Shown here: positions 4,286 to 31,530 of the stretch, one piece after another
How positions within the stretch are numbered: position 1 is the first letter of the stretch
Layout of the letters: the number at the start of each line of letters is the position of its first letter
NCBI GenBank assembly: GCA_965231035.1
Contig: OZ246409.1
Location: 571,101 to 603,100 of the forward strand
Reading direction: 5' to 3'
Length of the DNA stretch: 32,000 nucleotides
From: an uncultured Muribaculaceae bacterium
GTDB lineage: Bacteria; Pseudomonadota; Alphaproteobacteria; Rs-D84
Notes under the pieces: model-generated
What the model saw: the letters and a program-made list of their open reading frames with translations, nothing else
What the model was told of the DNA's origin: nothing
The model's database searches: none
Made by a program: the position numbers and the translations under genes

Positions 4286-4297
4286 TTTTTCTCCTTT

Positions 4298-5566
4298 TTA
4301 TTTTAATTTTATAACTTTTTCATCAAAACTATTTTGACCCAGTCGGACATAAACAAGATTATTTCCAGCAGGTATCTTTATACTTGAAACCAGGTTACCA
4401 CCAGATTTTAATTCAATCAAGCCGCTTTTATTCTTTGAAACACGCAGTAAATAAATCTTTTTAGGTAATGTTGCCCAAGTTCTGACTTCGGCGCTGGTAC
4501 TTGCAACAGAATAAATTGTCGATGCTAATCCTAATAAACCAGCGTATTGACTGTCAGAATTATACATTGTTGCCTGTAGAACAGCCTTGGAAACAGCAGA
4601 AGTCCAAGCGCGTAAAGCTTCATTTATTCTATATTCATTATATTCTGTCATAAACATTGCATCAACATCTGCCAGCACCTGCGCAGAGTCAATATATATA
4701 GTTTCGTTAAAAACCAATGGTTCAGATATTGCAATTGAAACAACACTGACGCCGTTACCAACAGACCATGGCATATCAAATCTGTCTTCTATTAATTTTG
4801 GTGCAAATCCAGATTCTATGAATACCCAAGATGTATTTGATGGTATTTTACCAGCCTTGGCCATATTTAAATCTTCGGAAACAAAAGAATTGCTTGGGAC
4901 CATACCATTTGCGCGCTTTAAATATGTCTTTGCATCATTAAAATCACCGTTGTCCAAAGCATAAATCCCAGCCAAGTAAGTCAAAGCAGGATTCATAATA
5001 TCTGTAAATGCAGCCCAACCCGCATTTTCATTTCTTAATCTGTTTGCCAGCTCGTTATTATCAGAAGATTTTTCTTGGTTATCTTTTATCAGTGCTTCGT
5101 ATTCGCGACTCATTCTTTGTTGACGGTCATAAGACTGATTTATAATTACGCGCGCATCTGCGAATCTCCCATCAGCCAGTGCATCCCATATCTGATAATA
5201 AGATACAAATAATGCATCCATCATATAAGGACGATAATCATTGGACATATTTCCGCCCAGTAAAATTCCAATTTCACGTGTTAAATCGCCACCAGTTAAA
5301 TCAAGATTTCTTTTATTAAATTCTTCGTACGCGCTGTCGCTTTCAGAAAATTTATTTTGGTGAAAAAGGCTGTCTGCAGAGATTAAAATTTCCAAATTAT
5401 CTTGGTCTGGTATACTGGATTTACCAGAAAATTTTTCAGCAGCATCAGAATAATTATTGAAATCATAAGAATTACGAACATCATCAAGTTTTAAAATCAT
5501 ATTTTGGGCACAACCAGATAACAATAACCCAGAAGCGATACAAAAAGCAAAAATACGAAATTTCAT
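4298..5566 (-). CDS. Large lipoprotein with a helical/TPR-like N-half (COG3014-like, function unknown)
   Basis: Lipobox LLLSG|C. The N-terminal half is helical-repeat-like (..YYQIWDALADGRFADARVIINQSY.., ..YLAGIYALDNGDFNDAKTYLKRA..). The C-terminal half is beta-rich. It lies 12 nt upstream of the LpoB-like gene. Confidence 0.5.
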   Translation of the reverse strand: MKFRIFAFCIASGLLLSGCAQNMILKLDDVRNSYDFNNYSDAAEKFSGKSSIPDQDNLEILISADSLFHQNKFSESDSAYEEFNKRNLDLTGGDLTREIGILLGGNMSNDYRPYMMDALFVSYYQIWDALADGRFADARVIINQSYDRQQRMSREYEALIKDNQEKSSDNNELANRLRNENAGWAAFTDIMNPALTYLAGIYALDNGDFNDAKTYLKRANGMVPSNSFVSEDLNMAKAGKIPSNTSWVFIESGFAPKLIEDRFDMPWSVGNGVSVVSIAISEPLVFNETIYIDSAQVLADVDAMFMTEYNEYRINEALRAWTSAVSKAVLQATMYNSDSQYAGLLGLASTIYSVASTSAEVRTWATLPKKIYLLRVSKNKSGLIELKSGGNLVSSIKIPAGNNLVYVRLGQNSFDEKVIKLK

Positions 5567-5573
5567 GCAATAA

Positions 5574-5602
5574 ACTGTAATTTATATTTTATAAATCGTC
5601 AA
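5574..5602 (-). promoter_or_regulatory. Candidate sigma-70 promoter for the lipoprotein pair (TTGACG-17 nt-TACAGT)
   Basis: The minus strand reads TTGACG-ATTTATAAAATATAAAT-TACAGT-TTATTGC-ATG. There is no Shine-Dalgarno, and the -10 ends 7 nt before the ATG at 5566, which implies a leaderless or near-leaderless mRNA. Confidence 0.3.
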
Positions 5603-5608
5603 TCTTAA

Positions 5609-7855
5609 TTATTTAGACACGGTTTCCAAGTACTCTTTGCCAACAGTGTCTAATATTTTTATTTCTTTTGTTTTTGGATTTAGAACTTTTGGTGTTCCGC
5701 CATATCCCATAGCCGCATGATGTAATGGTATCAAGAATTCTGGTAAAGGCGAACTTTCACCCATTTCCATAAATTTCTTCAATTTTTCATCTTTCCAGGC
5801 AGGTTGGTGATCTGCTTCGATTGGTCGGTTATAATATCCTTGGAATATTACGATTTGTTTTTTAGGACTTAACTTCATAATATCCATTTCGCTGTAAAGA
5901 ATGTCATGACCAGTTTCTTCTGTAACTTTGCCTTTGTCATCCTTCTTTTCTTTAATTTTCATCTTATAACCCATCATTTCCGAGAATCGCTTTGCGGTAT
6001 CAGGGTCGTTTTGACGCAATACAATTTTCGCAGCTGTTGTTGAAACAATGGTAGCTGCAGCATCTGCACCATATTTTTCCTGAATCTGGTGCAGGTCTTG
6101 ACCAATAATCAAATATGAAATCTGCTGACCGCGACCCAAATCTGGACCCTGGATAACGGCCTGTAATTTTTGCATTTTTGGCATCTCATCCAGAATGAAT
6201 AATACAGGAAATGTTCCAAGCTTTTGCCCGTTCAAAACATTACCAGGCGGGTTTGCCAAAAGGAATTTTGACATCAATTCAATAAATATTCCGGTGATCG
6301 GATTTAATGCCTCGGCATCAACCATGTTAATTGAAAGATAAACTGTAACCGGCTTAATATTTCCATCACGTGGGTCTTTCAATCCGCGCAAATCCGAAAA
6401 ATGAAAATCAGAATGACTAGTACGATTTCTAACGGCTGCGTTTCGGAAAATTCCAAGTCCCGCCATAACGGTAGATAAGATAGACCCACGTTCCTTGTCT
6501 GGTGTATTTGCCAATTGTGTTAATTCCAAAATAGCACGGTGTGAATATGCATACTGACGGGCTTCATTAACAGCGTCCAAGAACAAATCCTTCATTGGAT
6601 CCGCCATCATAACCATCTGGTCACCTTGTTTACGACGGTTTTCAAGGTCTTCGGCAATTCTTAACTGGTTTGCGTTTAACCAATCAAGAATCATGGAAAG
6701 TGAAGCCTCCTTTCCGTGCCAGACATCTGGAATATTTGCCCATGTTCCAATATGAACATAATTCATTACATTTAATTCACCAGAACGCAACCGTGCAACC
6801 GCAGCATATGCGTTTGGGTCATTAATCATAGATATATAATAATCATTCAGAACAGTTGCATCTTCTTGATCAAAAGTTCCGTTTGATAATCTGGTATAGA
6901 AATAATCATCAGCCTTGGCGCGTTCAATTTTTGAAATCATAAACTGAATCAAGCCAGATAACGCAGCGCGACCAGAAATTGTCCAGTGCGGATCAGCCGA
7001 GCTGGCTGTTTTTTCAGCAATCAAAACACTGCAAATTGTATCAACATACAAATCGCGTTGTTCTTGATTAAAAGGTACATGCTCTGGTGACAGTGGATTC
7101 CAGCTGGGATAATAAATTCCGTTTGCAGGATCATCTTGTCCCGCCCAATTCATAATAAATACCGGACCCACAGTTGCACGATACGCAGATGATGATTGTT
7201 TCAATTCAGGCTTTGGATCGTTAATAATCATTGATACATTGTTACATTCAAAAATTGTGGGTAATACGACACCCTGGGTTTTACCAGTTCCCGGAGGTGC
7301 CACACACAAAGTAGAAAGACATTCGTTCATCATCAAAGGCTTTTTCTTGAAATATCCCAGAACCATCATAAAACCATTTAATAAGCCCATTTTTTCAATA
7401 TCAGCCTTGGTTGCCTTGTTTGAAGATTTTTCATCAAATTTATCATTTCCATAAGGATTAAATTCACTAACAAGTGTCGAATCAACCAAGATGTGATAAA
7501 CAATAAATGGAATCAAAGGGGTAATGCAAGCAATGTCAGTTTGCATTACAGAGCGTGTCAACCATGCAGGAATTTCCGCTAAAATTGATAAACCACCAGA
7601 AAAAAGCATATTTTGAAAGAATAAAGAAATCCATTTCCATGTTGCGGGTGACCAGCCGTATCTCCAAATATGTTCAACTGCAAAAGATAAACCAAAAGCA
7701 ACCGCACAAGACAACCAAATACCAGAAGCCCAACGCATTTTCCAAAATAATTGCGCCATAGGCTTTTGCAAATGTTCTTTGTACGAACTGGATTTGAAAA
7801 TATTCAAACCTTTGGATTCGCCACCTGCTGATAAAATCTTGAACTTGTCTACCAT
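5609..7855 (-). CDS. virD4: Type IV secretion coupling protein (T4CP), TraG/VirD4 family ATPase
   Basis: N-terminal TM helices. Walker A LCVAPPGTGKTQGVVLPTIF, compared with VirD4 ApTrSGKGvg.ViPnLL. IINDPKPELKQ, compared with DiKGE. Walker B FILDEMPKMQKL. IIGQDLHQIQEKYG, compared with the Qs..QL...YG motif. The track start at 7918 is TTG and would overlap rsmE, so I prefer the ATG at 7855 (MVDKFKIL...). Confidence 0.85.
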   Translation of the reverse strand: MVDKFKILSAGGESKGLNIFKSSSYKEHLQKPMAQLFWKMRWASGIWLSCAVAFGLSFAVEHIWRYGWSPATWKWISLFFQNMLFSGGLSILAEIPAWLTRSVMQTDIACITPLIPFIVYHILVDSTLVSEFNPYGNDKFDEKSSNKATKADIEKMGLLNGFMMVLGYFKKKPLMMNECLSTLCVAPPGTGKTQGVVLPTIFECNNVSMIINDPKPELKQSSSAYRATVGPVFIMNWAGQDDPANGIYYPSWNPLSPEHVPFNQEQRDLYVDTICSVLIAEKTASSADPHWTISGRAALSGLIQFMISKIERAKADDYFYTRLSNGTFDQEDATVLNDYYISMINDPNAYAAVARLRSGELNVMNYVHIGTWANIPDVWHGKEASLSMILDWLNANQLRIAEDLENRRKQGDQMVMMADPMKDLFLDAVNEARQYAYSHRAILELTQLANTPDKERGSILSTVMAGLGIFRNAAVRNRTSHSDFHFSDLRGLKDPRDGNIKPVTVYLSINMVDAEALNPITGIFIELMSKFLLANPPGNVLNGQKLGTFPVLFILDEMPKMQKLQAVIQGPDLGRGQQISYLIIGQDLHQIQEKYGADAAATIVSTTAAKIVLRQNDPDTAKRFSEMMGYKMKIKEKKDDKGKVTEETGHDILYSEMDIMKLSPKKQIVIFQGYYNRPIEADHQPAWKDEKLKKFMEMGESSPLPEFLIPLHHAAMGYGGTPKVLNPKTKEIKILDTVGKEYLETVSK

Positions 7856-7864
7856 TGTGATAAC

Positions 7865-7873
7865 ATTATACCA
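7865..7873 (-). promoter_or_regulatory. Candidate extended -10 promoter (TGGTATAAT) for the T4CP gene
   Basis: The minus strand reads TGGTATAAT-GTTATCACA-ATG. This fits TGnTATAAT perfectly, sits 9 nt from the ATG at 7855, and has no SD, which suggests a leaderless transcript. Confidence 0.35.
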
Positions 7874-7902
7874 GAATAATGGTCGAAAATTAAGAATTAA
7901 GA

Positions 7903-8556
7903 ATGAAAAATATACCAAGAATTTTTATAAATGAAAAAATCGAGCCTGGTAAGAAAATATCAGTCGAAAAGGATGTTTTGCATTACCTTAAAAAAGTTAT
8001 GCGAACTGATAAGTGCCTGATTTTCAATAATGGCGAAGAATTTTACGCAAACTTGAATGAGGATAACAAGTATTTGATTGCGGATAAAAAAACAGAACAT
8101 TCTGACCCCAGCAATGAGATAACTTTTTATTTTGCGCCAATAAAGAAAACAGATGAAATGTTAAATATGGTAACCCAAATGGGTGTGAAGCGCTTGCAAC
8201 CTGTTATAACAGACAGAACTGTTGCACATCATATTAACTGGGACAGAATTAAAAAAATTATAATCGAGGCATCCGAACAATCAAATAGAAACAGTGTTCC
8301 AGAATTATTATCACCAATAAACTTTTCAGAATTGAGTAAGAAAGATTTGTATTTTGCTGATGAACGTGCTGCGTATGATGTTGAGATTAAAAATTCGGCA
8401 AATAGGGCAAAGAATATATTAATTGGTCCCGAAGGTGGTTTTTCAGAATCAGAATTCGCGGCATTGGATTCTTCTGGTGCGGTTGGAATTTCTTTGGGTA
8501 AAACTATTTTGCGTGCTGAAACTGCTGCTGTGGCTGCGCTGGCAAAGATTATATAA
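7903..8556 (+). CDS. rsmE: 16S rRNA (uracil1498-N3)-methyltransferase RsmE
   Basis: N-terminal PUA-like start (RIFINEKIEPGKKISVEKDVLHYLKKVMR) and the C-terminal SPOUT knot motif ILIGPEGGFSESE...ISLGKTILRAETAAVAAL. Confidence 0.9.
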   Translation: MKNIPRIFINEKIEPGKKISVEKDVLHYLKKVMRTDKCLIFNNGEEFYANLNEDNKYLIADKKTEHSDPSNEITFYFAPIKKTDEMLNMVTQMGVKRLQPVITDRTVAHHINWDRIKKIIIEASEQSNRNSVPELLSPINFSELSKKDLYFADERAAYDVEIKNSANRAKNILIGPEGGFSESEFAALDSSGAVGISLGKTILRAETAAVAALAKII

Positions 8557-9283: not shown

Positions 9284-10285
9284 ATGAAGAAAAAAACAGC
9301 CAAGAAAAAAACAGCTCCTGTAAAAGTTTCTAAGCCTGTTGCCAAGGAAGTATCTTTGGTCACAAAAAACATAGAAAAAAAAGAGCGTCATTTTAATGCT
9401 TGGTCTTTATCTATTTATGTTTATTGGTTTATTATTTTATTCTTTATTTCTGCCACATTTTATATTTTGGGACGCAGTCATGGAATATTGCACCCAATAT
9501 CCAGCAATGTAGAAATAACAGAAGAAGCTTTGATGCAGTCAAACCAGTATTTTGATGCGGGTAAAAAGAACCTGTTAGAGGGTAATGTTGACGATGCAAT
9601 CAAAGATTTAACTGCGGCGGCTAATGTTGAAAATCCTTCTGTGGATACATTTATTTTGCGTGGTGAAGCGTATATGCAATCAGGTGATTATAAAAACGCA
9701 ATGACAGATTTTAACAAAGTAATCGAAATGGACTCTATGAATTCTGTTGCTTTTTATGATCGTGCTTTATTGAATACCAGGTTGGAAGATTATACGGCTG
9801 CTTTGACGGATATTAACAATGCATTGGCAGCACGCGCAGTTCATCCAAATGATATTTTGCAGTTACGCGATATTTATGCAAAACGTGGTCAGTTAAATTT
9901 GTGGTTAAAAAATTGGGACGGTGCGGTTGTTGATTACACAAATTCTTTAGCGCGCCCAGAAGGTGTTATAAACCCATCTGTTTATGCCGAACGTGCCGAG
10001 GCTTATACAGCTTTGAATAAATATGTCGAGGCTGCCGATGACTATATATCCGCGGTCCGTATAATATCTGAACAGATTCAAGGTGCAACAGACAAGGAAG
10101 TTCGTGAGGATTTATCACGTCGTGCAGCAGGTTATTTTGAAAAGGCAGCTGCATTAAAAGTTAGAATGGGTGATATGGAATCTGCGAAAAGTGATTTAGA
10201 ATCATCTTTGACAATCTGGACGGCTTTGGACGATTCAGAATCTATGGACAGGGTCAAAGGGCTTATTTCTGGAACACAACAATAA
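9284..10285 (+). CDS. Membrane-anchored TPR-repeat protein
   Basis: SD GAGGGAG. A Lys-rich N-terminal tail (MKKKTAKKKTAPVKVSKPVAKE) and one TM helix (WSLSIYVYWFIILFFISATFYILG). Several TPR-like units follow (..GNVDDAIKDLTAAANVENP.., ..GDYKNAMTDFNKVIEMDSMN.., ..EDYTAALTDINNALA..). Confidence 0.7.
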   Translation: MKKKTAKKKTAPVKVSKPVAKEVSLVTKNIEKKERHFNAWSLSIYVYWFIILFFISATFYILGRSHGILHPISSNVEITEEALMQSNQYFDAGKKNLLEGNVDDAIKDLTAAANVENPSVDTFILRGEAYMQSGDYKNAMTDFNKVIEMDSMNSVAFYDRALLNTRLEDYTAALTDINNALAARAVHPNDILQLRDIYAKRGQLNLWLKNWDGAVVDYTNSLARPEGVINPSVYAERAEAYTALNKYVEAADDYISAVRIISEQIQGATDKEVREDLSRRAAGYFEKAAALKVRMGDMESAKSDLESSLTIWTALDDSESMDRVKGLISGTQQ

Positions 10286-10310
10286 AAAAACCGCCAAATG
10301 GCGGTTTTTT
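10284..10310 (+). terminator. Rho-independent terminator of the TPR gene
   Basis: aaaaaaa-CCGCC-aaat-GGCGG-tttttt, immediately after the stop at 10285. Confidence 0.75.
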
Positions 10311-10347
10311 AGTTATTAGTTATCAATTATTAATTATCAGTATTAAT
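10310..10347. repeat. Tandem heptamer array (left arm): T-AGTTAT T-AGTTAT C-AATTAT T-AATTAT C-AGTATT
   Basis: Read directly from the sequence. It has 7-nt periodicity and abuts the terminator T-run. Confidence 0.5.
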
Positions 10348-10554
10348 TCCCAGTCCTAGGTTTCCATTGTGTCATTGCACTTGTCTTGTCATAGTTTTAA
10401 TGAAGGCAAAAGGAATAAAATAATGAAAGTAACTAAGTAAGTTATAATTTCTGGCGAGCAAAGCGAGAAAAGGGAACATTTGCGCGTGAATAAAAAATAG
10501 GCACTAGGTATTATACGTATTTAGTACTGAATATTAGGTATCAGGTACTAGTTT

Positions 10555-10585
10555 TTATAATTTATAACTTATAACTGATAACTTA
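10555..10585. repeat. Tandem heptamer array (right arm), inverted relative to the left arm
   Basis: TTATAA-T-TTATAA-C-TTATAA-C-TGATAA-C-TTA. Its reverse complement is AGTTAT-C-AGTTAT-A-AGTTAT-A-AATTAT. The hexamer cores match the left arm at 23 of 24 positions by my alignment. Confidence 0.5.
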
Positions 10586-10612
10586 AAAATCCCGCCATTT
10601 GGCGGGATTTTT
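10585..10612 (-). terminator. Rho-independent terminator of the 1011-aa Cys-rich protein gene
   Basis: aaaaat-CCCGCC-attt-GGCGGG-attttt. On the minus strand the stem is followed by a T-run, directly after the stop at 10614. Confidence 0.75.
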
Positions 10613-10613
10613 A

Positions 10614-13600
10614 TTATTCCATTTCAGTGCTGATTATATCACCGTACATACCGACTTCGTCTGCGCCGATATAACAACGGATATGATTACCAACATCGTT
10701 CATCCAAGATTCCTGTTCGGAATCGAATTTTGCACGATTACCCGCTTTGATAACTTGCGCGGTACCAACACCCAGCGCAATACCACCAACAACAGCCCCA
10801 GCACCATTAACAATCTTACGAGTGTTACTATCATTTGATATTGGTTTGTCAGTTGCACCACAAAGGTTCAGGTTCCCTTGCATTTCGCTAATAGCGCTAT
10901 CTATATGAGTCCCCTTGTTTGCATTGTCTGCGCTTGTAGATACAATTTTATATGTATACCCCAACGTTGAAACACGTTCAGATACAACAGCATCTTGTTT
11001 TTGATCGCTATTACTTTTGGCATCTTGTAGTTCTTTGATAGAAGCCATAAATTTATCTTCGCATGCTTTTGCTTCTTTATTGGATTTAGTAACTTCTTTT
11101 GTATCATCTGTTCCCAATAATCCACCAAGGCTGCCTTTTTGTAGATAATTTGTAGCAATGCCACCACCTACGGCACCCAATACTGACGTACCAGCAGTCA
11201 ACCATCTTTGACCTTTGGTCATTTTACCGCTAGATGATGTACCAGTCTCTCGGGCTGCAACTTTGTTTGCAATTGCTTCCAGTTCACTGCCTGGGATCCA
11301 GCTGCCGCAAGTGAATGAATCACCGGCTGCATAGTATGCTGTGCTCCAATCTTTACCAGAATTAATTGCATCTTGGATATCTTTGTCATCAGATTGCAAT
11401 GTGATGCGGATTCTGCAGAAGCTTCCGTACAAATCGTTGCTGGCAGAGAATTGACTGTCTTTTAGACCATTAGACGCATAGCTTGCTGGAACCTTTGCAC
11501 TTTTCATTTTTACCCACATATATGTGCTGCCATTTTCACGAGCACCAATGATACCGCCTTCGTTATCGGACAAGCACATATTTTGTTGTTTTGTCAGCTT
11601 GGCATTATATTTTGCCTGAGCTTCGATTTCCAAATCATAGATAAGGTCGTTGAATACAGAACGTTCTGATTGTGCAATATTATATGCATTTTCAGATACC
11701 ATTTTTGGATATACATATCTTCCATTAGAGCTGTCGCAACGTCCAGCATCACCAGTTCCGTTTGCACCTGTTGTGCACAGCAGATTTCCATCAGCGTCAG
11801 TATCTTGGATGTTACCACTGGATGTGGCAGAATATGTTCCAGAATCCAACCATCCTGTACGAGTATCTGTTACACCAGTACCCCAAGAGTCTGCTGTGCT
11901 GGGCCCTGTTGTACGACGAGCAGATTCAGCCTTGATATGTTCTTCGCATGTTGGGTTGTTCTTGACACTGTTCATGCATAAACCAATTATAATTGTGTGA
12001 TCCAGAACACCACCGACCTTGTTCATACTTTTATCAAATGAAGCACTGCCAGTGTTTGTCAGAACAGAATAGACGTCTGTACGGTTGCGATAGCAATTAG
12101 AATAATCTTCACCGCACATTGATTTTACACAACCTGTGGCGATTGCCTGGCACTGTCTTTTCATGTTATCCAAAGAAGATTGATTATAAGACAATGACAG
12201 CTTTGAATTCAAAGCAGCAACTGCACCAACCGCATCAGGATTCGTTGCAGTTGTATCATTTGCGGCTGTAAACAAGATATCAAACAAACTGCCCGACAAA
12301 TAGCTTATAATACCAGTTGCAGATTGAAATGTTACAACCGAGTACTTGCAGTATGTATCGTTATTTACAACAGCTTCGCATCCATATTTTATATCAGCCA
12401 AAGTTGTTGGATTTGTAACACCCTTGATAGTATTATCAGAATCAAATGCAGATGCATAGCATGCCGCACCGCTGCCTTGACCACATGTACGCATCGCACA
12501 AGATGTAATTGTATCTTGGCACTTCTGTTTTGTCTTTTTATCAAATGTTGTAATTAAATCATCAATTTTGGACTTCATAGAATCATTCATACGTGAAGAA
12601 TAAGCATCTGAATAAATAGTATCTTTGTTATCTTCATCTTGAAGTTGAGAATTTGTTGGCATAACACCATTTCCAACGAATGTAGCATAGCAGAACTTGT
12701 TTGCACCAATTGTATCATAACAAGAATCTTTCAAGAAACCTGCAATTTCAGATTTATTAACTGCACCAGAATCTGTTACATAAGGAGTTGTAGTAGTCGT
12801 TGGATTTGCAACAAAAGTATTTCCAGCTGCATCAACCAATGTGTGAGATGTTCCTTCCTTGCATTTATAAGGATTTTGTGCGCAAGCATTCAAAATACAT
12901 TGGTCTGCAACCTTGTAACAAGTTGCAACTGCATTAACAGCTGCCAAAGCAGCGCCTTCGGAAATCATAACACCCAGACGGCTGGTTGCTGTTGGATTAG
13001 CAGCAGTATTAGTTGAACCAAACAATTCGGTTTTGCCACCATTTTCGCATCTTGCAAGTGTTGATTCACAGAAAATCTTTTGTGTTTGAAATTCGGCATT
13101 GCTGGTACATAATTCGAAATCTGAACCGCAAACATCATCTTTTTTCAAGCAACTGGTATATTTTTTAACACAAGTGCTGGTGTCATAGCGATTGTTAACG
13201 TATGCCGCACCAATCAGTTGACCCAGAACACTGCCACTAGTTGGATAAACATATTCACCAGCAGAATTTTTATTAGAAAAGGCCGTTTGATTGCTTGTTC
13301 CAAAAAGGCTGTTTACACCGGAGGTTTTGCACTGCATCAAAGTGCTGGCGCATTGTGGTTTTTTGCCAAAGAACAGTGTATTATTGGTGCATTCTTCAAA
13401 GTTTGCACCGCAAACATCGCCACCTTTCATACATGCTGTGTATGCATCAATACAATCTTTGTCGGCAAGCATCGATACAGCGGTATTACCAGATGTAGAC
13501 GATGTGGAATTACCACTAATCTGAGCAGTTATTGTAGGCATTCTGGACACTGCACTTCCAAGAACACTTGGACGTGCGGTCGAAGCAGAAGCCGCAGGAA

Positions 13601-13649
13601 TAACCGCCAAAACAGACATAAAACCGAATACTTTTTTAAGAAAAATCAT
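10614..13649 (-). CDS. Giant secreted Cys-rich protein (1011 aa), function unknown; C-terminal Gly-zipper-like hydrophobic segments
   Basis: ATG with GGAGGAAG upstream. Signal peptide MIFLKKVFGFMSVLAVIPAASA|S. About 38 Cys by my count, arranged in recurring C-x6-C(-x4-C) patterns. Two Gly-rich hydrophobic stretches lie near the C-terminus (WLTAGTSVLGAVGGGIATNYL; IVNGAGAVVGGIALGVGTAQVI). I recognised no known domain. Confidence 0.8.
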   Translation of the reverse strand: MIFLKKVFGFMSVLAVIPAASASTARPSVLGSAVSRMPTITAQISGNSTSSTSGNTAVSMLADKDCIDAYTACMKGGDVCGANFEECTNNTLFFGKKPQCASTLMQCKTSGVNSLFGTSNQTAFSNKNSAGEYVYPTSGSVLGQLIGAAYVNNRYDTSTCVKKYTSCLKKDDVCGSDFELCTSNAEFQTQKIFCESTLARCENGGKTELFGSTNTAANPTATSRLGVMISEGAALAAVNAVATCYKVADQCILNACAQNPYKCKEGTSHTLVDAAGNTFVANPTTTTTPYVTDSGAVNKSEIAGFLKDSCYDTIGANKFCYATFVGNGVMPTNSQLQDEDNKDTIYSDAYSSRMNDSMKSKIDDLITTFDKKTKQKCQDTITSCAMRTCGQGSGAACYASAFDSDNTIKGVTNPTTLADIKYGCEAVVNNDTYCKYSVVTFQSATGIISYLSGSLFDILFTAANDTTATNPDAVGAVAALNSKLSLSYNQSSLDNMKRQCQAIATGCVKSMCGEDYSNCYRNRTDVYSVLTNTGSASFDKSMNKVGGVLDHTIIIGLCMNSVKNNPTCEEHIKAESARRTTGPSTADSWGTGVTDTRTGWLDSGTYSATSSGNIQDTDADGNLLCTTGANGTGDAGRCDSSNGRYVYPKMVSENAYNIAQSERSVFNDLIYDLEIEAQAKYNAKLTKQQNMCLSDNEGGIIGARENGSTYMWVKMKSAKVPASYASNGLKDSQFSASNDLYGSFCRIRITLQSDDKDIQDAINSGKDWSTAYYAAGDSFTCGSWIPGSELEAIANKVAARETGTSSSGKMTKGQRWLTAGTSVLGAVGGGIATNYLQKGSLGGLLGTDDTKEVTKSNKEAKACEDKFMASIKELQDAKSNSDQKQDAVVSERVSTLGYTYKIVSTSADNANKGTHIDSAISEMQGNLNLCGATDKPISNDSNTRKIVNGAGAVVGGIALGVGTAQVIKAGNRAKFDSEQESWMNDVGNHIRCYIGADEVGMYGDIISTEME

Positions 13650-13675
13650 TAGACTTCCTCCAATATCATTGCTTT

Positions 13676-13684
13676 ATTATAACA
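13676..13684 (-). promoter_or_regulatory. Candidate extended -10 promoter (TGTTATAAT) for the Cys-rich protein gene
   Basis: The minus strand reads ...TTGACTGTGTTTTTA-TGTTATAAT-AAAGCAATGATATTGGAGGAAGTCTA-ATG. The TGnTATAAT match is perfect. The nearby TTGACT is only 12 nt away, so it is probably not the -35. Confidence 0.35.
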
Positions 13685-13720: not shown

Positions 13721-14692
13721 TTACATTGAAAAATTAAGTATATCTTTCAGCTGTTGCATATCGACTGGTAATCTGGATTTAAAGTGCATTTTTTCATTTG
13801 TTACAGGATGTTTTAAATCTAAAACCTCGGCATGAAGCATTTGACCATCATGAGTTTTTAAAAATTCTAACAATTCAGGTTTTTTTACACTGCCTATTCT
13901 GGCTGAACCACGACCATATACCGGATCACAAAGAACAGGAAAACCATGTGCAGATAAATGAACCCTGATTTGATGTGTACGACCAGTCAACAAGGTACAT
14001 CTGATTTCTGATATTTTATCATGTTCCCAAATATTCATCAATTCAACATGGGTGTGAGAATCTTTACCACCCCTTTTTACCATGGTCATTTTTTGCCTGT
14101 TACGGCTGGAACGTGTTATATTGCCTGTAATTTCAGCACTTTCCCAGTTTGGTACACCCCAAACAAAAGCGACATATTTTCTGGTTAAATCATGTATGGA
14201 AAATGTTTTTACCAATTCACGAAAGGCTGTATCTGATTTCGCCAAAATAACAACACCGCTGGTATCCTTGTCCAGTCTGTGAACAACACCTGGACGAACT
14301 GTTCCACCCAAAGAAGATAATTTCGTATGTGCCAGGATATTTTGAACCAGTGTTCCAGATGATACCCCAGCACCAGGGTACATAACAATTCCCCTGGGTT
14401 TATTAACAACTATGATATCATCATCTTCAAATAAAATATTTAAATCAAAATCAGTTGATGATAAAAGTTGATCAGAGAAATTTGAATTTGGTACAACTAG
14501 AACATTAAATTTTTCATCTTGTTTTACCTTGTCAGAAAACTTTACATCAATTTCTGTGTCACCAATTATTTTTGAAACTTTGAATTTTTGAATTTCAGTT
14601 CTGGAAAATTCTGGCAACTGCAATGCCAAAAATTTATCTAATCTTTGACCAATATCTGACTCAGAAACAACAAAAATGCGATTTTCAGACAT
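13721..14692 (-). CDS. rluD: RluA-family 23S rRNA pseudouridine synthase (RluD/RluC-like, with N-terminal S4-like domain)
   Basis: RLDKFLALQLPEFSRTEIQKF (S4-like). Catalytic HRLDKDTSGVVILAKS. LTGRTHQIRVHLS and LHAEVLDLKHPVT. Confidence 0.8.
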   Translation of the reverse strand: MSENRIFVVSESDIGQRLDKFLALQLPEFSRTEIQKFKVSKIIGDTEIDVKFSDKVKQDEKFNVLVVPNSNFSDQLLSSTDFDLNILFEDDDIIVVNKPRGIVMYPGAGVSSGTLVQNILAHTKLSSLGGTVRPGVVHRLDKDTSGVVILAKSDTAFRELVKTFSIHDLTRKYVAFVWGVPNWESAEITGNITRSSRNRQKMTMVKRGGKDSHTHVELMNIWEHDKISEIRCTLLTGRTHQIRVHLSAHGFPVLCDPVYGRGSARIGSVKKPELLEFLKTHDGQMLHAEVLDLKHPVTNEKMHFKSRLPVDMQQLKDILNFSM

Positions 14693-14698
14693 TATTTA

Positions 14699-15160
14699 TT
14701 ACCTGTATTCCTTCCAATCTTTGCCGCGATTGCATTTTGATAAGTCAACTTTCAAATAATTATTACCATAAACAGGGCATTCCAGAATACCAGTAGTCGT
14801 ATCTTGGGTTGCATCACGCTCCACATTTCTCCATGCAAAAGTAACAGTCTTTGGAGTCATCAAACACGTCAGACGGATTTCACCATCTGTTTTACCATTA
14901 TCACCAATCCAAATCCTGGCGGAATCTGTCTGACCAAAGCACGGAAAACTGTCCAGAAAATACAATTCTAACCCATCACCAACCAATTTTTTATCACCAG
15001 AAAATTCGACACTGAATTCCGAAAGTCGTAATCCTGTTACGGATTCCCAATCAGTGCTGGTGGAAAAAATGCTTTTTCGAATAATTGTTGGTGTTGTGTT
15101 GTCTGCATTAGCTGCAAAAGGCATAAACAAACATAAAAATAAAAAGTTAAAAATCTTCAT
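14699..15160 (-). CDS. Small secreted protein, unknown function (4 Cys)
   Basis: Signal peptide MKIFNFLFLCLFMPFAANA|D. The mature part is beta-rich. It lies 13 nt after the ZitP-like gene and 6 nt before rluD. Confidence 0.55.
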   Translation of the reverse strand: MKIFNFLFLCLFMPFAANADNTTPTIIRKSIFSTSTDWESVTGLRLSEFSVEFSGDKKLVGDGLELYFLDSFPCFGQTDSARIWIGDNGKTDGEIRLTCLMTPKTVTFAWRNVERDATQDTTTGILECPVYGNNYLKVDLSKCNRGKDWKEYR

Positions 15161-15173
15161 TTTGAATCCTTTT

Positions 15174-15674
15174 TTATTTTTTAAATTCTATGGTTATTTT
15201 TTTCACCCCAGTAACAGGTGAAGATAAAATATAAGAAAATGGTGCGGTATTTCCACTTTCTAAAAGTGTTGCGGGTGACATAACCTTTTGTTGGGTTAAA
15301 ATGTTTCCCTGGTCATCATGTGAAATAATTATTAAATCTGGAACACCATAAATATCTTTGGATTTATTTTTTACAAAACCGTTAACAACAAAGTGCTGAA
15401 CGCCAGCTTCGTCAGTAATTGTATTTATTTCAGAAATCTTTGCAGTTAAAGGATTTTTTTTAATATCATTTGAATTGTATTGAGCAATCACAACAAAAGT
15501 AAAAACAATTGCGGCCAATAATGCGCATATCGAGGCAATAAAAACCAAAAAGGAATTTTTGCGTCTGGGTTGTTTTACATTCCAAACATGTCCGCAAACA
15601 ATACATTGAACAGGCGAAGTCGGTGCCGAGTTCAAAGTATATTCAGTCTTACAAAATTCACATACGGTTTTCAT
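15174..15674 (-). CDS. MJ0042-type zinc-ribbon / single TM / DUF3426-like protein (ZitP-like)
   Basis: N-terminal CxxC...CxxC ribbon MKTVCEFCKTEYTLNSAPTSPVQCIVCGHVWNV. A basic linker and a TM helix (FLVFIASICALLAAIVFTFVVIA). A beta-rich periplasmic domain ends in ..GVKKITIEFKK. This is the same architecture as Caulobacter ZitP. Confidence 0.7.
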   Translation of the reverse strand: MKTVCEFCKTEYTLNSAPTSPVQCIVCGHVWNVKQPRRKNSFLVFIASICALLAAIVFTFVVIAQYNSNDIKKNPLTAKISEINTITDEAGVQHFVVNGFVKNKSKDIYGVPDLIIISHDDQGNILTQQKVMSPATLLESGNTAPFSYILSSPVTGVKKITIEFKK

Positions 15675-15694
15675 TATCAGATTTATACCATAAT

Positions 15695-17032
15695 TTAATT
15701 CAAATTCAATTGGTTATATTTTAACTTAACTTTTTTCTGGATTTCAGAAATTGCATTCATAAAATCTGAAGCGGTTGCATTATCGTTTGTAACAACAGAA
15801 TTAAATGATTGACTACTGGTTGTTTTGGTTGCTGCTTCTTTTTTTACAATCAATGGTGCCATACGGCTTAACTCGGCTAATGATATATCAGAAAGGTTAG
15901 CTGTGCTAGTGTTTGCATCCCAAAAGTAATTAGAATCAGATGAATCTTCGATACGACTTTTTACAATCAATTTTGGGGTAACAGAGTTATCAAATCCAAT
16001 GGTAACAAACATAGCGGTCACATGTCCTGCAACCATATCAATTGTTTTATTAACTTTTAGAACTGTTGCATCCGAACCAGAAGGGTTTAAAACAGAAAAT
16101 CCAGATAAATTTAAATTATTTACCCACATATCATCGGTTGTAAAACTTGCAAACCTGGCAGAGTTTGCCAAAGTTAATATCCCCGATACATCCATACTTC
16201 TTGAATCTGAAGATAATGTTCCAGCAACAACAGCGTCCTTAATAGTAACTTTTTTATCCACAATTACTCTTTTCTGAAATGTCAGATTATCCGAAACAGA
16301 TTTCTCGGATTTTAAAATTTCTTCAAATTTTGCGGAGTCTGAATCAAGTAATTTTGTTTCAGTTATATTATGTCCAGCCAAATTCAAATCAGATTCCATA
16401 GTTGCATCTGTAGAGTTTTCAGACGGTATTCGCCATAAATATTCATTTGTATCCAGTTTTGTATTAGTTGTTCCAACAATACCATGCAGACCTTCAATTC
16501 CAAAATCAACAGCATTACCGTGCCATGTTCCAAATGCACCAAATGCTTTGCCTTTTTCAACAAAACCCATTTTATTATTTCCCAAGTTTATAATTTCCCG
16601 TGTTCTTATTGGTGAAATATTTTTATCGTTTAAAACAATAATTCCTTGTAATGTTGAATGACCATTATTATCACTGGATTTTAATATTCTGATTTGCAGT
16701 TTATCGCCATATTGTTTTAATGAATCTTCGCTGATTCCATAGTCTGCAAGATCTGAAACCTCGACCCTGGTTATATTTTTACCAACAGTTTTAAGTAATT
16801 CTTTTTTGTTTGTATTAATATATTTTTCCAAAGCAGATTGAACAGTTTCAATTTGTTTTTCTATGGCGATATTTTCTGAACGTTCAATACGTGATTTTTG
16901 AAAATTTATAATAAATGGCAAAACCACAGCCACCAATGCCAGGGTCAATAAAAGTTCAATCAACATTCCGCCACGTTCATTATTTTTGTTCAAGATGATT
17001 TTTTTTATTTTCATAAATTCTATTGCTTCCAT
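15695..17032 (-). CDS. Large prepilin-like protein C (445 aa): class III signal / pilin alpha-1 helix, PilV-like motif, repeat-rich C-terminal half
   Basis: N-terminus ...NKNNERG|GMLIELLLTLALVAVVLPFIINF has Gly at -1 and Glu at +5. Internal motif NEYLWRIPSENSTDATMESDLNLAGHNITE. The start is ATG at 17032 (13-nt overlap with the upstream gene) or ATG at 17014. Confidence 0.7.
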   Translation of the reverse strand: MEAIEFMKIKKIILNKNNERGGMLIELLLTLALVAVVLPFIINFQKSRIERSENIAIEKQIETVQSALEKYINTNKKELLKTVGKNITRVEVSDLADYGISEDSLKQYGDKLQIRILKSSDNNGHSTLQGIIVLNDKNISPIRTREIINLGNNKMGFVEKGKAFGAFGTWHGNAVDFGIEGLHGIVGTTNTKLDTNEYLWRIPSENSTDATMESDLNLAGHNITETKLLDSDSAKFEEILKSEKSVSDNLTFQKRVIVDKKVTIKDAVVAGTLSSDSRSMDVSGILTLANSARFASFTTDDMWVNNLNLSGFSVLNPSGSDATVLKVNKTIDMVAGHVTAMFVTIGFDNSVTPKLIVKSRIEDSSDSNYFWDANTSTANLSDISLAELSRMAPLIVKKEAATKTTSSQSFNSVVTNDNATASDFMNAISEIQKKVKLKYNQLNLN

Positions 17033-18234
17033 CCGGTTTTAAGTATTTTGCTGAAATCTGAATCGCTTGGCATATTTGGAATTGTTGCACGGTAAAGTCC
17101 AAGTTCTGAAAACTTTGGGGGTGTAGATGACGGAAAAGACCAACTTCCGATTTTAATAGGTGGTGTGGCAGACATCATTAATTCACCAGAAACTGTCAAT
17201 CCATAGTTGTTATAAAAATTAATCTGGTCAGAATACAAGAAAGATGTATATATTGAATGCGCAATTATTCCTGAAAATCCGGAAATAGTTTTTGTTGAAT
17301 CAGATTTCACGGTTAAGTTGTTACCAATGTTTAAAGAATTATTAACAGTTGCCTTGTCTGTAATAATATTACCATTAGTAGAAAAACCAGAATCGTTTAA
17401 TTTCTTTGCAGAAATATTTCTGAATCCTGAAATATCATCGCTTACCCGCATAGAACCAATATTTACATTGCCGGCATCCATATTTGCGCCACTGGAAAAA
17501 TATACAGATCCCGCGTTAACATTTTTTGATTCCATAAATGCAGCTGACAAATCTTTTATTTTTACAGATTCAGCAGCCAAAGTACCAATATTGAAAATAT
17601 TGAATTTTCCCATATTCAAATTTCGCTGCATAACATTAAAATCATCTTTTCCAGAAGTGCTGCGATGTAAATATTTTGAAACATCGTCGCCCACAAAGCT
17701 GTAATTCACACGATAAACCAGATCACCTGGTTTGAAATCTGGGGCGGTCACAGCCCAAGATGTTCCATATGCAACACCATCTTTGTCTACGCTGGCGGCG
17801 TCCATGCCAATTTGCTTTACAACCTTAGCTGTGTGTAATGCATCTCCACCTAAATCAAAAGCCAGATAAACATCAGTTACAATTGAACCGTTAACCTGGT
17901 ATTTATCAACAAAGCCGGCATGTGCTGAATCTGTAATTTTATTAAGTTCATCCGCATTCAGTTTTATTTGTGCAATATTAGGCCATTTATCTTGATTAAC
18001 CCGTACAAAGTTAAGAACAGGATCGTGCAAACTGATAACTTGCTTTGCAATAGATATGTCACGAATCTGTTGTGAAGTTTCGGAAATTTGATTATAAATA
18101 AATGGACTTAAGATTGCTATGATTCCCAGCACCAATAATATTTCCAATATGCTGGCGCCACGCTGTTCGGTATTTCTGACAGTGTTAAAATTTTCAGAAA
18201 AAATATTTTCTTTAATCACAATCACTTTTTCCAT
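17020..18234 (-). CDS. Large prepilin-like protein B (404 aa)
   Basis: N-terminus ...RNTEQRG|ASILEILLVLGIIAILSPFIYNQ has Glu at +5 and a 26-aa leader from the only in-frame ATG. Internal motif SKYLHRSTSGKDDFNVMQRNLNMGKFNIFNIG. The C-terminal half has N/S/G-rich short repeats (NVNAGSVYFSSGANMDAGNVNIGSMRVSDDISG...). It overlaps the upstream gene by 23 nt. Confidence 0.7.
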   Translation of the reverse strand: MEKVIVIKENIFSENFNTVRNTEQRGASILEILLVLGIIAILSPFIYNQISETSQQIRDISIAKQVISLHDPVLNFVRVNQDKWPNIAQIKLNADELNKITDSAHAGFVDKYQVNGSIVTDVYLAFDLGGDALHTAKVVKQIGMDAASVDKDGVAYGTSWAVTAPDFKPGDLVYRVNYSFVGDDVSKYLHRSTSGKDDFNVMQRNLNMGKFNIFNIGTLAAESVKIKDLSAAFMESKNVNAGSVYFSSGANMDAGNVNIGSMRVSDDISGFRNISAKKLNDSGFSTNGNIITDKATVNNSLNIGNNLTVKSDSTKTISGFSGIIAHSIYTSFLYSDQINFYNNYGLTVSGELMMSATPPIKIGSWSFPSSTPPKFSELGLYRATIPNMPSDSDFSKILKTGWKQ

Positions 18235-19567
18235 CCAACAAACATTGTTTTACATTAATTCTTTTTTCCAATCTTTCCCAATAAACATACTGGCAAATAA
18301 TATTTTGTGATAAAGATTTAGAATTATAAACACCGTTAAGGCCAGAAATTATAGATTTGCAAGTAACAGTAGAAGAATCATCTTCGGTTGGTTTTGATAA
18401 TATTTTGAAATTGTCATTGTTTATACTGTCGACCAGAACGTCTGGCAAAACAGATGTTCCCGCTGGTCTGATATCCAAAATAACCGCACCAGTTTTACCG
18501 TTTGCCAACGCTGTTGATGTTTGGTCACGTAATGTAATATTTGCAGCATATATTTTATCAACTTCTACACCGCTTTCCGAGCTGTATTCTAATGAGTCTG
18601 GATTTATAAAAACATCTTGTCCACGTGCAGCATTTAAAAATGAAGATAATTCCAAGCGTTCTACTGACAAATTTATATTATCCAGAATCATATTTCCTTG
18701 GACTTTCCAATTTGTTGGACCTGTGAAACTGGTTTTGCCAGCAGTCATAGAAAAATCATAAACCGATGCAGAACCAGATGTGAAATTTCCAGAATCACCA
18801 AACCTGGAAATTGTTTTTGCAGACAAACTGTCCAATCCAAGTGTTCCACGTGTTATTGATAATGCAGCTTCCCCGGGATTACTTTGAAATATGGCTTTGT
18901 CCGCAGATAAATTTTCTATAACGCTACGAATTTTTTTACCACCTTCTGAACCAAATAGAGAAATATTATTAGCCTGTGTTGATTCAAATTCAGCATTTCT
19001 TCCAAATATTGAAAAAATATTTTCAAGTTTAAATCCACCCATATTCAATTCCGACAAAAAGCCGTTTGAGTCTGGTTTTTTTTCTTTACGTTTCACAATA
19101 TCAGAAAAACTTTCATCCAACGGAATAATCATATAAACATTTCCGTCTTTTTCAGATGCATAAAATCCCAATCTGCGAACAATCTCGGCCCGTTCAATAC
19201 CAGAAAGTTTTCCACCAGATATTTCAAGATATGCAGAAGTTGAATCCTTGGTTTTATCAATCACAAGGGATATTTTTTGACCAAAAGCAGTACGCGGGAT
19301 AAATCCCAAAGGCAAACCATACGGTTCCAAGGTATCTGTAAAATTATTTCCAGAAAGAATAGAAGTGTTGTATTCCAAAGAATCTAAATTTTCACGAATA
19401 TAAATTCCAGCAGCAGTTTGTGCCGTTTCTATTTGATTGGACACAGCATACATTTGAGAATCTTTATCGCGAATAGCCAGCTTTTGCGTAAAAAACGGAA
19501 TGAACGCAATAATTAATGCCAAAGCCAGCAAGGCTTGTAATAAAAAGTTTCCGCCCTGCCTTTGCAC
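18212..19567 (-). CDS. Large prepilin-like protein A (about 451 aa from the preferred GTG start), lacking Glu+5
   Basis: The track start at 19636 is TTG with no SD. AGGAGG (19574-19579) followed 6 nt later by GTG (19567) gives MQRQG|GNFLLQALLALALIIAFIPFF. Internal motif NGFLSELNMGGFKLENIF. Four Cys lie in the last about 50 aa (..VTCKS...NIICQ...KQCLLDGKSDCD). Confidence 0.65.
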   Translation of the reverse strand: MQRQGGNFLLQALLALALIIAFIPFFTQKLAIRDKDSQMYAVSNQIETAQTAAGIYIRENLDSLEYNTSILSGNNFTDTLEPYGLPLGFIPRTAFGQKISLVIDKTKDSTSAYLEISGGKLSGIERAEIVRRLGFYASEKDGNVYMIIPLDESFSDIVKRKEKKPDSNGFLSELNMGGFKLENIFSIFGRNAEFESTQANNISLFGSEGGKKIRSVIENLSADKAIFQSNPGEAALSITRGTLGLDSLSAKTISRFGDSGNFTSGSASVYDFSMTAGKTSFTGPTNWKVQGNMILDNINLSVERLELSSFLNAARGQDVFINPDSLEYSSESGVEVDKIYAANITLRDQTSTALANGKTGAVILDIRPAGTSVLPDVLVDSINNDNFKILSKPTEDDSSTVTCKSIISGLNGVYNSKSLSQNIICQYVYWERLEKRINVKQCLLDGKSDCD

Positions 19568-19726
19568 AAGCACCCTCCTACAAACCAATACTTTACTAAA
19601 ACCGCTTTTTTGGTGCAATGAAAAAAAATATTGCAATCGGTTTTCAGATGATTTATTATCAAGCAGTTGATTAGAACGATAGTGATTTATTTGCTATCCA
19701 AATTTACCTCCAATTAAAGATAAAAT

Positions 19727-21675: not shown

Positions 21676-22131
21676 ATGAGAGAAGAATCCGGTCGTTCAT
21701 TAATCGAAGTATTAGGTGTCTTGGCAATAAGTGGTATTTTAACTGCTGGTGCTATTGCGGCTTATAACACAATTCGCACGCGTCAGAACAGAATAATTGC
21801 AACAGACCAATTGGAACTGATTGCAAAAAATACAAAATTGTTATTGGAAGTTAAGGGTGATTATACCGGCGTATCAGTTGATTATTTGATAAAAGCAGGT
21901 GCACTTAAAAATAACAAGACACCAATTGGTGGATCTGGATGGACAATTACATCCAGTGTTGATGGAAAAGAATTTAATATAAACCTGGTTGGATTGTCTA
22001 AATCTGATTGTGCATACCTTACAACTGTTAAATTGAATTGGACAACAGCTATCCGTGTAAATGGCAGTGAAACAAATCCCGGTAACTTCTGTGCTGCGGG
22101 TAAAAATGATGTTTCACTGATAGTTCAATAA
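21676..22131 (+). CDS. Type IV pilin-like protein (151 aa, short leader)
   Basis: SD AAAGGGG. MREESG|RSLIEVLGVLAISGILTAGAIAAYN has Gly at -1, Glu at +5 and a hydrophobic alpha-1. The C-terminal Cys pair (..SKSDCAYLT....GNFCAAG..) looks like a pilin D-region disulfide loop. Confidence 0.75.
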   Translation: MREESGRSLIEVLGVLAISGILTAGAIAAYNTIRTRQNRIIATDQLELIAKNTKLLLEVKGDYTGVSVDYLIKAGALKNNKTPIGGSGWTITSSVDGKEFNINLVGLSKSDCAYLTTVKLNWTTAIRVNGSETNPGNFCAAGKNDVSLIVQ

Positions 22132-28432: not shown

Positions 28433-28556
28433 ACAACAAATCATATCACAAAAATTGAAATATTAAAAACCAAAAATGAAAACTTGTGTTAAGTTATCGA
28501 ATTGTTTATACTTTATTCGATGACCTGGCACTTAACCAGAATAGAAAGGAAATACA

Positions 28557-30041: not shown

Positions 30042-31530
<1,489 letters not shown>

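Follow-up and report, generated by a model that had tools for sequence, protein, structure and literature searches.

The gene at positions 10614 to 13649 (minus strand) of a 32,000-nucleotide (nt) stretch of contig OZ246409.1 (assembly GCA_965231035.1, positions 571,101 to 603,100; hereafter the window) encodes a 1011-amino acid (aa) protein with exactly 38 cysteines. The contig is deposited under the name of an uncultured Muribaculaceae bacterium and is placed by GTDB in the alphaproteobacterial lineage Rs-D84. Comparison of the protein with its homologs strongly supports the view that it founds a hitherto undescribed family of envelope proteins, restricted to one lineage and exported through Sec. 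A previous sequence-only reading of the window had recognised a secreted protein of 1011 aa with about 38 cysteines, leaving the strand unstated, and had suggested that it is stabilised by disulfides and possibly inserted in a membrane through glycine zippers. The open reading frame (ORF), its cysteine content and the disulfide-stabilised, exported state were borne out by the analysis; the most informative features, which that reading had missed, are the topology indicated by cysteine parity, the locking of the C-terminal tail and a hypervariable tip.

From the N-terminus, the protein is made of two type A and three type B helical repeats, an alpha/beta domain, a first Gly-zipper-like segment, a loop, a second Gly-zipper-like segment and a beta tail, all encoded on the minus strand. 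The regular cysteine spacing noted earlier proved to be more orderly than described. The type A pattern, C-x6-C-x6-C-x6-C-x12-C-x6-C, occurs twice (aa 66-107 and 160-201), with 42% identity between the two repeats (E 2.5e-20). The type B pattern, C-x6-C-x4-C-x6/7-C...C-x9-C, occurs three times (aa 244-320, 377-434 and 500-568), the second and third repeats matching each other with E 1e-4. The motifs quoted in the sequence-only reading lie at aa 244-263 (CYKVADQCILNACAQNPYKC), 377-397 and 500-519, and eight more cysteines are found beyond the five six-Cys repeats. At least 30 cysteines are invariant across 65 homologs, down to 21% identity.

AlphaFold2 was used to model the full-length protein from a 65-sequence alignment (model 1) and aa 601-1011 (model 2). 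Model 1 had a mean predicted local distance difference test score (pLDDT) of 75.7, with values of about 90 over the mostly helical aa 60-580 and of 80-90 over aa 610-800, which adopt an alpha/beta arrangement. The N-terminal motif TARPSV-x7-SRMPT (aa 24-40; 13530..13580), in which R26, R36 and P38 are at least 90% conserved (alignment A2), is disordered in the model (pLDDT <50). The two type A repeats (aa 58-150 and 151-238; 12936..13478) were predicted to be helical at a pLDDT of about 90, and the first copy is the only part missing from distant members. The three type B repeats (aa 239-370, 371-493 and 494-583; 11901..12935), also helical, mostly scored 85-95; all of their 18 cysteines are conserved, 15 in 65/65 and three in 64/65 sequences. 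The alpha/beta domain (aa 611-805; 11235..11819; pLDDT 90-97 in model 2) contains a long helix (653-694) and cysteines 625, 638, 692, 745 and 781, with C692, C745 and C781 invariant. Judged by the models, both types of six-Cys helical repeat, and the alpha/beta domain as well, seem to be new folds. The two Gly-rich stretches already seen near the C-terminus correspond to segment 1 (aa 806-846; 11112..11234; pLDDT <50), with G825, G829, G842 and G846 at least 90% conserved (alignment A1), and to segment 2 (aa 945-970; 10740..10817), each with several GxxxG motifs. Between them lies the hypervariable loop or tip (aa 847-944; 10818..11111), which carries C863 and C930. A conserved C-terminal helix and three-strand beta tail (aa 971-1011; 10617..10739) carries the lone invariant C992.

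An even-number cysteine bias is a classical signature of disulfide-bonded exported proteins, and Dutton, Beckwith and colleagues reportedly used it genome-wide in 2008. Cysteines were counted per region in 162 full-length members of the family, with Gly segment 1 and the tail placed by hidden Markov models (HMMs). The family displays the signature: the whole mature protein has an even cysteine count in 143 of 148 members (binomial p = 3e-36). Because of this parity, the sequences strongly support the prediction that essentially all 38 cysteines are paired, in about 19 disulfides, and that the whole mature chain lies outside the cytoplasm. The distribution between regions was as regular. The body, from the mature start to the end of Gly segment 1, has an odd count in 158/162 members (35 cysteines in 106 members, 37 in 37). 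The loop has an even count in 159/162 although the number varies from 0 to 8 (2 in 70 members, 4 in 53, 6 in 21 and 8 in 14). The tail has exactly one cysteine in 159/162, and body and tail taken together are even in 158/162. Since the loop count stays even, the loop should sit in an oxidising, extracytoplasmic compartment, and the Gly segments would therefore not form an inner-membrane hairpin with a cytoplasmic loop. Since the body count is odd and the tail has a single cysteine, C992 must pair with the body and the tail must fold back. It is thus strongly supported that C992 would pair with the one unpaired cysteine of the body, closing segment 1, tip and segment 2 into a hairpin; the invariant C692, C745 and C781 are candidate partners. 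The tail was modelled at a pLDDT of 83-96 although the flanking segments scored below 50, which fits docking of the tail. In a crude covariation analysis (mutual information with average product correction, effective number of sequences 114), the top three long-range pairs outside the loop were 809-971 and 802-975, which join the helix before segment 1 to the helix after segment 2, and 688-1010, which joins the long helix to the C-terminus; all three agree with this docking.

Rare split variants were also found. In these, a large ORF with an odd number of cysteines (53) stops behind segment 1 and a variant loop; next comes a second, small ORF with its own Shine-Dalgarno sequence and signal peptide, followed by segment 2 and the one-Cys tail. 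In these loci (L089 196-4208; L090; L093 2-1020; L091/L092) the large ORF has a different Cys-rich extension of the CxxC type and the small ORF is 128-147 aa long. The split variants could be functional two-subunit forms or decaying genes; the signal peptide on the small ORF indicates that both halves are exported independently. Membrane insertion energies were estimated as position-independent sums on the Hessa scale, a crude calculation. An inner-membrane stop-transfer segment would have a free energy at or below zero and would leave cytoplasmic parts free of disulfide constraint, and neither was observed. The sums ranged from +1.9 to +8 kcal/mol in all 162 members, with medians of +4.7 for segment 1 and +3.4 for segment 2, and were never at or below zero; being positive, these values are in keeping with passage through Sec and not with stop-transfer.

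Compared pairwise, 25 Enterousia-level sequences had a mean identity of 55-73% across the alpha/beta domain and the five Cys modules, 59% in the tail, 41-47% in the Gly segments and 17% in the loop, the length of which ranges from 98 to 263 aa among the members compared. Pairs of proteins with 80-92% identity in the 300 aa that precede segment 1 fall to 15-22% within the loop; for P0053 and P0064, for example, the values are 92% and 21%. In sequence comparisons, the loop thus behaves as a replaceable cassette. It was modelled as a helix, a beta-hairpin and a helix; this prediction and the even cysteine count indicate a folded domain rather than a linker. A diversity-generating retroelement acting on the loop was considered and rejected, no template-like repeat of loop DNA being present in the window.

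Searches for known families and folds agreed with the earlier failure to assign the protein to any family. Pfam returned no match to the protein even at E ≤ 10, NCBIfam returned only noise, and sequence and profile searches against the PDB gave nothing significant. With Foldseek, neither the full-length nor the aa 601-1011 model matched anything in the PDB at E ≤ 0.001, nor did the full-length model in a viral library; for the aa 601-1011 model, which includes the alpha/beta domain, the best E against PDB folds was 2.9. When 43 family members were compared with Pfam, only sub-threshold, compositional matches to Gly-zipper families and one chlamydial noise match were obtained. The C-terminal module was also considered as a general sorting tag and rejected: no other ORF in 89 loci has it, and its matches among representatives are the family itself, fragments and split ORFs. 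The literature found on Enterousia and Rs-D84, mostly by title or abstract, consists of genome surveys only, and PMC12306168 does not describe the protein.

A word-indexed search retrieved at least 778 homologs, each about 900-1200 aa long and annotated as hypothetical; an exhaustive search gave 225 clusters at 50% identity, and relatives occur in 232 GTDB species representatives. The 80 of these 232 loci that were listed all come from gut metagenome-assembled genomes, nearly all titled Alphaproteobacteria, 'Rickettsiales bacterium' or Candidatus Enterousia, with two Bacteroidales titles; among these 80 is one circular chromosome of 958,618 bp. The family is confined to Rs-D84/Enterousia-like gut Alphaproteobacteria. 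Enterousia (order Rs-D84) has genomes of 0.75-1.0 Mb, is fermentative and lacks respiratory chains and standard transporters, and Rs-D84 organisms have been proposed to live on other cells, as obligate symbionts or parasites (PMC12306168). Compared with the window protein, orthologs from Enterousia species are about 50% identical. The corresponding values are 48-56% for the pilin-like and small secreted neighbours described below, and 64% for an OmpA-like protein, 66% for RluD, 69% for Skp and 76% for DnaX. Judged on these identities, the divergence of about 50% is the rate expected of an envelope or surface protein.

The gene is complete, from an ATG start to a stop codon, and a plus-strand reading of 10614-13649 was ruled out because the translation is full of stops. 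Serine (10.5%), threonine (9.6%) and asparagine (6.9%) are abundant in the product, as first noted, and the expression and export signals listed in the sequence-only reading are all present. The Shine-Dalgarno sequence GGAGGAAG (13654..13661, read 13661-13654) lies 4 nt 5' of the ATG, and an extended -10 promoter element, TGTTATAAT, was seen at 13676..13684 (read 13684-13676). This element was absent from the list of a consensus promoter scan because no -35 hexamer matches. The pattern TGnTAnAAT recurs about 35 nt 5' of the start codon in at least 53 of 86 orthologous loci, and for this reason the gene very likely has its own promoter, despite a gap of only 71 bp after rluD. A T-rich motif, TTTCTTTATCAAA, is found just 5' of the extended -10, about 40-60 nt before the start, in many orthologous loci (L012-L023); it could be a -35 substitute or a regulator site. 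The predicted Sec signal peptide, MIFLKKVFGFMSVLAVIPAASA followed by S (aa 1-22; 13584..13649), has a KK, a hydrophobic core and an A-S-A/S cleavage site placed by eye, and is conserved in homologs. It has no lipobox cysteine at the cleavage site; the peptide ends in A-S-A/S and the first cysteine is aa 66. A bidirectional terminator-like hairpin at 10285..10310, common to this gene and a convergent tetratricopeptide repeat (TPR) gene, was the only one found. Between the stop codon and this hairpin, about 300 nt are unannotated (10311-10613), and Rfam gave no match there at the gathering threshold.

All genes from 19636 down to 10614 are on the minus strand and the gene for the Cys-rich protein is the last of them, in line with the long co-directional block first described. 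Upstream of it, a block on the same strand (13721..19636) keeps its order and strand in about 65-72 of 89 loci, linkage being found in 72 of them. It contains three paralogous pilin-like genes encoding 404-474 aa (15695-19636; the trio is kept in about 70 of 89 loci), a Zn-ribbon/transmembrane gene (15174-15674), a gene for a small secreted protein of about 155 aa (14699-15160) and rluD (13721-14692). The N-termini of the pilin-like proteins resemble type IV prepilin helices, for example QRG/ASILEILLVLGIIAIL, with Glu or Gln at +5. The name 'giant pilins' given to them at first did not hold: no Pfam or NCBIfam pilin model matched any of the three, and their resemblance to pilins is limited to the N-terminal hydrophobic helix. 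The product of 21676-22131, a protein of 151 aa, has a weak N_methyl motif. The order of the seven genes is also found in the termite-gut lineage L095, where the neighbours are 31-61% identical and the Cys-rich protein 23.5% identical to those of the window. As L095 keeps the order despite this divergence, the linkage is old, and the Cys-rich protein can evolve much faster than its neighbours. In other lineages, the gene follows a 412-aa lipoprotein gene and an LpoB-like gene, follows ftsQ-ftsA, follows miaB and ybeY/lnt, or lies beside a LysM gene. The diderm envelope genes of the window include those for LpxD, FabZ, Skp and the OmpA-like protein.

Several further observations concern the surroundings of the gene. 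A VirD4/TraG-type type IV coupling protein is encoded at 5609-7918 (minus), 3 kb away. The region 3533-7918 (minus) encodes, after the coupling protein, a putative 422-aa lipoprotein (LSGC lipobox) and a 250-aa LpoB-like lipoprotein; in L001, L002 and L018, orthologs of these two lie directly upstream of the ortholog of the Cys-rich gene. The coupling protein prompted a reading of the Cys-rich protein as a type IV secretion effector, which the Sec signal peptide and the disulfides ruled out. A secreted protein of 670 aa, p670 (23611-25623, minus), has 23 cysteines (22 in the mature form) and starts with C-x6-C-x4-C-x4-C. Its orthologs (600-740 aa, 22-30 cysteines) and a relative of about 250 aa are encoded directly downstream of orthologs of the Cys-rich gene, on the same strand, in at least 23 other loci. 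The similar CX6CX4C motif raised the question of homology between the two proteins, and hhalign detected none. In a termite-gut sub-lineage (L006/L007 7475-12793 and L097 3715-9070), a relative of the gene directly follows ftsQ and ftsA; ftsA is fused there to a ribulose-phosphate-epimerase-like region and the relative occupies the usual position of ftsZ. The idea that it replaces ftsZ was set aside, as the order is found in one sub-lineage only and the protein is exported.

Tentatively, and with somewhat less than even confidence, we favour a mechanism in which a Gly-zipper hairpin anchors the protein in the outer membrane, a localisation that we infer, and displays the variable tip. Two Gly-zipper helices of about 20 residues would sit in the outer membrane as an alpha-helical hairpin, with a function like that of the two-transmembrane (2TM) anchors of SlyB/Pcp or the 17-kDa antigen. 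The rigid, disulfide-stapled body, with its five helical six-Cys modules and alpha/beta domain, would stay in the periplasm. The hypervariable tip would be exposed on the cell surface, between Gly-zipper 1 leading out and Gly-zipper 2 returning, and would mediate, and diversify under, contact with partner cells, host cells or phages. It probably does so jointly with its pilin-like neighbours, in bacteria that have been proposed to live off other cells. The earlier suggestion that Gly zippers insert in a membrane needs narrowing: any membrane that holds the segments has to be either the outer membrane or that of another cell. Insertion in the inner membrane as a hairpin or an anchor does not stand, given the parity and the hydrophobicity of the segments, which in neither case reaches that of a Sec stop-transfer helix.

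A number of points weigh against this mechanism. We know of no route that inserts a non-lipidated alpha-helical hairpin into the outer membrane, and the protein has no lipobox. Gly-zipper Pfam models gave no match to the protein even at E ≤ 10. The disulfide pairs are predicted from parity and not from model coordinates, and tail-body pairs were not significantly enriched in the covariation top 50 (11 observed against 14 expected). The hypervariability of the loop could stem from relaxed constraint instead of surface exposure. The link to the pilin-like genes may reflect gene-order inertia in small genomes, since the gene is preceded by a promoter of its own and lies among other neighbours in some lineages. 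Finally, Rs-D84 is reported to lack respiratory chains, so that reoxidation of a DsbB-type system is hard to place (PMC12306168). No Dsb genes were noticed in the 32-kb window or in the flanks of about 20 kb of related loci, where no dedicated search was made.

A more far-reaching version of the outer-membrane hairpin, which we regard as unlikely, would make the family a new outer-membrane class: a non-lipidated Gly-zipper hairpin, possibly assembling into a channel-forming oligomer, with a cassette tip that sets the partner cell and with unconventional oxidative folding. If so, the tip would decide which partner cell a genome-reduced Rs-D84 bacterium, poor in transporters, attaches to and feeds from, and about 19 disulfides in an anaerobe without a respiratory chain would imply an unconventional oxidative-folding pathway.

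The leading alternative, which we consider doubtful, is that the protein is a released or surface-attached adhesin or membrane-attacking protein, whose Gly zippers would insert in a partner or host membrane as an anchor or a pore and whose tip would recognise the target. Exit could take place, for example, through a type-II-secretion or type-IV-pilus-like machine of the neighbouring pilin-like proteins. The conserved block with its three pilin-like genes, Gly-zipper segments that are not Sec stop-transfer helices, the hypervariable and disulfide-bonded tip and the partner-dependent lifestyle proposed for Rs-D84 (PMC12306168) are consistent with this explanation. A fully exposed protein would be expected to vary throughout, whereas the body is 55-73% identical; there is also the separate promoter, and the window showed neither a secretion ATPase nor a secretin or prepilin peptidase. 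Residues 850-1003 showed a weak, non-significant profile similarity to the pore-forming toxins YaxA and XaxA (E 0.1-0.2), but these matches are at noise level and Foldseek found nothing.

Somewhat less probable still is a purely periplasmic scaffold, proposed by functional analogy with the Cys-rich envelope proteins of chlamydiae, in which a rigid helical rod stapled by disulfides would serve a reduced-genome diderm as a stiffener or spacer of the envelope and the Gly segments would be flexible hinges. The roughly 19 predicted disulfides, the mostly helical repeat body and the single conserved architecture, near-universal in the lineage, would suit such a role, as would the Cys-rich exported proteins encoded nearby. 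Other predicted exported proteins of the window with an even number of mature cysteines, all on the minus strand, are sec153 (14699-15160; 4 cysteines), p377 (27311-28444; 10) and p670 (22). These counts hint that the organism generally forms periplasmic disulfides. A scaffold would nevertheless leave the cassette-like hypervariable region without an obvious purpose; in length and GxxxG pattern, the Gly segments correspond to membrane helices, and no homology to chlamydial OmcB or OmcA was found.

It is improbable that the protein is a pilus tip adhesin, that is, a functional analogue of PilY1/PilC carried on a fibre of the three giant pilin-like proteins. Its size of about 1000 aa with a signal peptide and its conserved place at the end of the pilin-like block would fit, and its rate of evolution equals that of the pilin-like proteins (identity of about 50%, compared with 66-76% for housekeeping neighbours). 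Against this, rluD and a separate conserved promoter stand between the block and the gene, several lineages have the gene elsewhere, and none of the pilin family models fits the pilin-like proteins; the protein itself matched neither PilY1/PilC nor any beta-propeller, and its fold is mostly helical. Least probable is an inner-membrane protein, either of type I, with segment 2 as anchor and the tail in the cytoplasm, or a two-pass hairpin whose loop is cytoplasmic. In its favour, segment 2 exceeds all other internal stretches in hydrophobicity (Kyte-Doolittle 1.59 over 19 aa) and has basic residues after it. Against it, the loop keeps an even cysteine count while the number varies from 2 to 8, the tail cysteine is needed by the odd body count, each small protein of the split variants has a signal peptide, and the crude insertion energies came out above zero in every one of the 162 members; parity, split variants and energies led to the rejection of the type I topology.

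Elsewhere in the window, a complete 16S rRNA gene (30041-31530, plus) is followed by a tRNA gene (31694-31767, plus), and these account for a rise in GC content to about 0.51 at 30-31 kb. The genes at 394-1425 and 28557-29555 (both plus) encode signal-peptide proteins without cysteines that have aromatic ends (…IRMKF and …FMYRF) and are probably outer-membrane beta-barrels; the ortholog of the 394-1425 product in L001 carries Porin_4.

Rs-D84/Enterousia bacteria are widespread in human and animal guts, have few recognisable transporters and have been proposed to live off other cells (PMC12306168). In such a genome, a 3-kb gene represents about 0.3% of the sequence, and at least 232 species have kept this one. 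With its rigid disulfide scaffold and a single hypervariable tip, the protein is a candidate for a cell-contact apparatus of partner-dependent bacteria. It also raises the questions of how about 19 disulfides become oxidised in a fermentative anaerobe, and of whether Gly-zipper hairpins that are not lipidated can anchor or display proteins in an outer membrane. Should the function prove mundane, the repeat types and the alpha/beta domain would still be worth solving as apparent new folds.

Among known systems, the chlamydial OmcB/OmcA proteins (PF03504) had been proposed as an analogy in the sequence-only reading. Like the protein described here, they are exported, very Cys-rich envelope proteins of a host-dependent bacterium and are thought to be disulfide cross-linked. 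The analogy is not backed by homology: Chlam_OMP6 (PF03504) did not match the protein and reached E 0.053 in one of 43 members. The protein also differs from OmcB/OmcA in its helical fold, and its parity and modular repeats point mainly to intramolecular disulfides. PilY1/PilC share with it an export signal, a size of about 1000 aa and a gene beside pilin-like genes; in contrast, the present protein is helical and Cys-rich and has a separate promoter. No PilY1/PilC match was found by Pfam, NCBIfam or fold, and the model is helical with one small alpha/beta domain.

TraN (PF06986) of F-like mating-pair stabilisation is a Sec-exported, Cys-rich outer-membrane protein with a conserved disulfide base and a variable tip that determines partner specificity. 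The resemblance to the present protein, in a conserved Cys-rich base and a variable tip, is by analogy only; the VirD4-like coupling protein encoded 3 kb away is a further point of likeness. There is no Pfam match at E ≤ 10 and no match to a solved structure by Foldseek, and no F-type transfer genes lie nearby, the neighbours being rluD, the pilin-like genes and the TPR gene. Unlike TraN, the protein is chromosomal, near-universal in its lineage and expressed from its own putative promoter.

In SlyB-type proteins, Gly-zipper helices sit in the outer membrane. These Gly-zipper 2TM proteins (SlyB/Pcp, Rickettsia 17-kDa antigen; PF05433, PF13488, PF13441) are Sec-exported, like the protein of the window, and have short Gly/Ala-rich GxxxG helices, which its Gly-zipper-like segments may resemble. 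None of the three models (PF05433 Rick_17kDa_Anti, PF13488 Gly-zipper_Omp, PF13441 Gly-zipper_YMGG) reached its gathering score; across 43 members, Gly-zipper_Omp, Rick_17kDa_Anti and YMGG gave sub-threshold matches only (E 1.1e-3 in 2 members, 2.5e-3 and 9.8e-3). The 2TM proteins have a compact motif of about 40 aa with two adjacent helices. In the present protein, both segments have GxxxG and conserved glycines, but they were modelled at pLDDT <50 and lie about 100 aa or more apart, being split by a hypervariable domain of 100-260 aa. It further differs in having no lipobox or lipid anchor, in being 5-10 times larger and in its extra Cys-rich body.

For that body, a parallel can be drawn with the twin-CX3C/twin-CX9C (CHCH) hairpins, in which cysteines also recur regularly along helices and antiparallel helices can be stapled by disulfides. 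In the model of a type A repeat, C66 and C73 lie in helix 63-74, and C100 and C107, their possible partners, in or just after helix 90-105. The x6 spacing, the six cysteines per module and the bacterial periplasmic setting set the protein apart from CHCH hairpins, with which no sequence or fold match was found. Collectively, as a family, as a set of folds and as an architecture, the protein is outside anything described.

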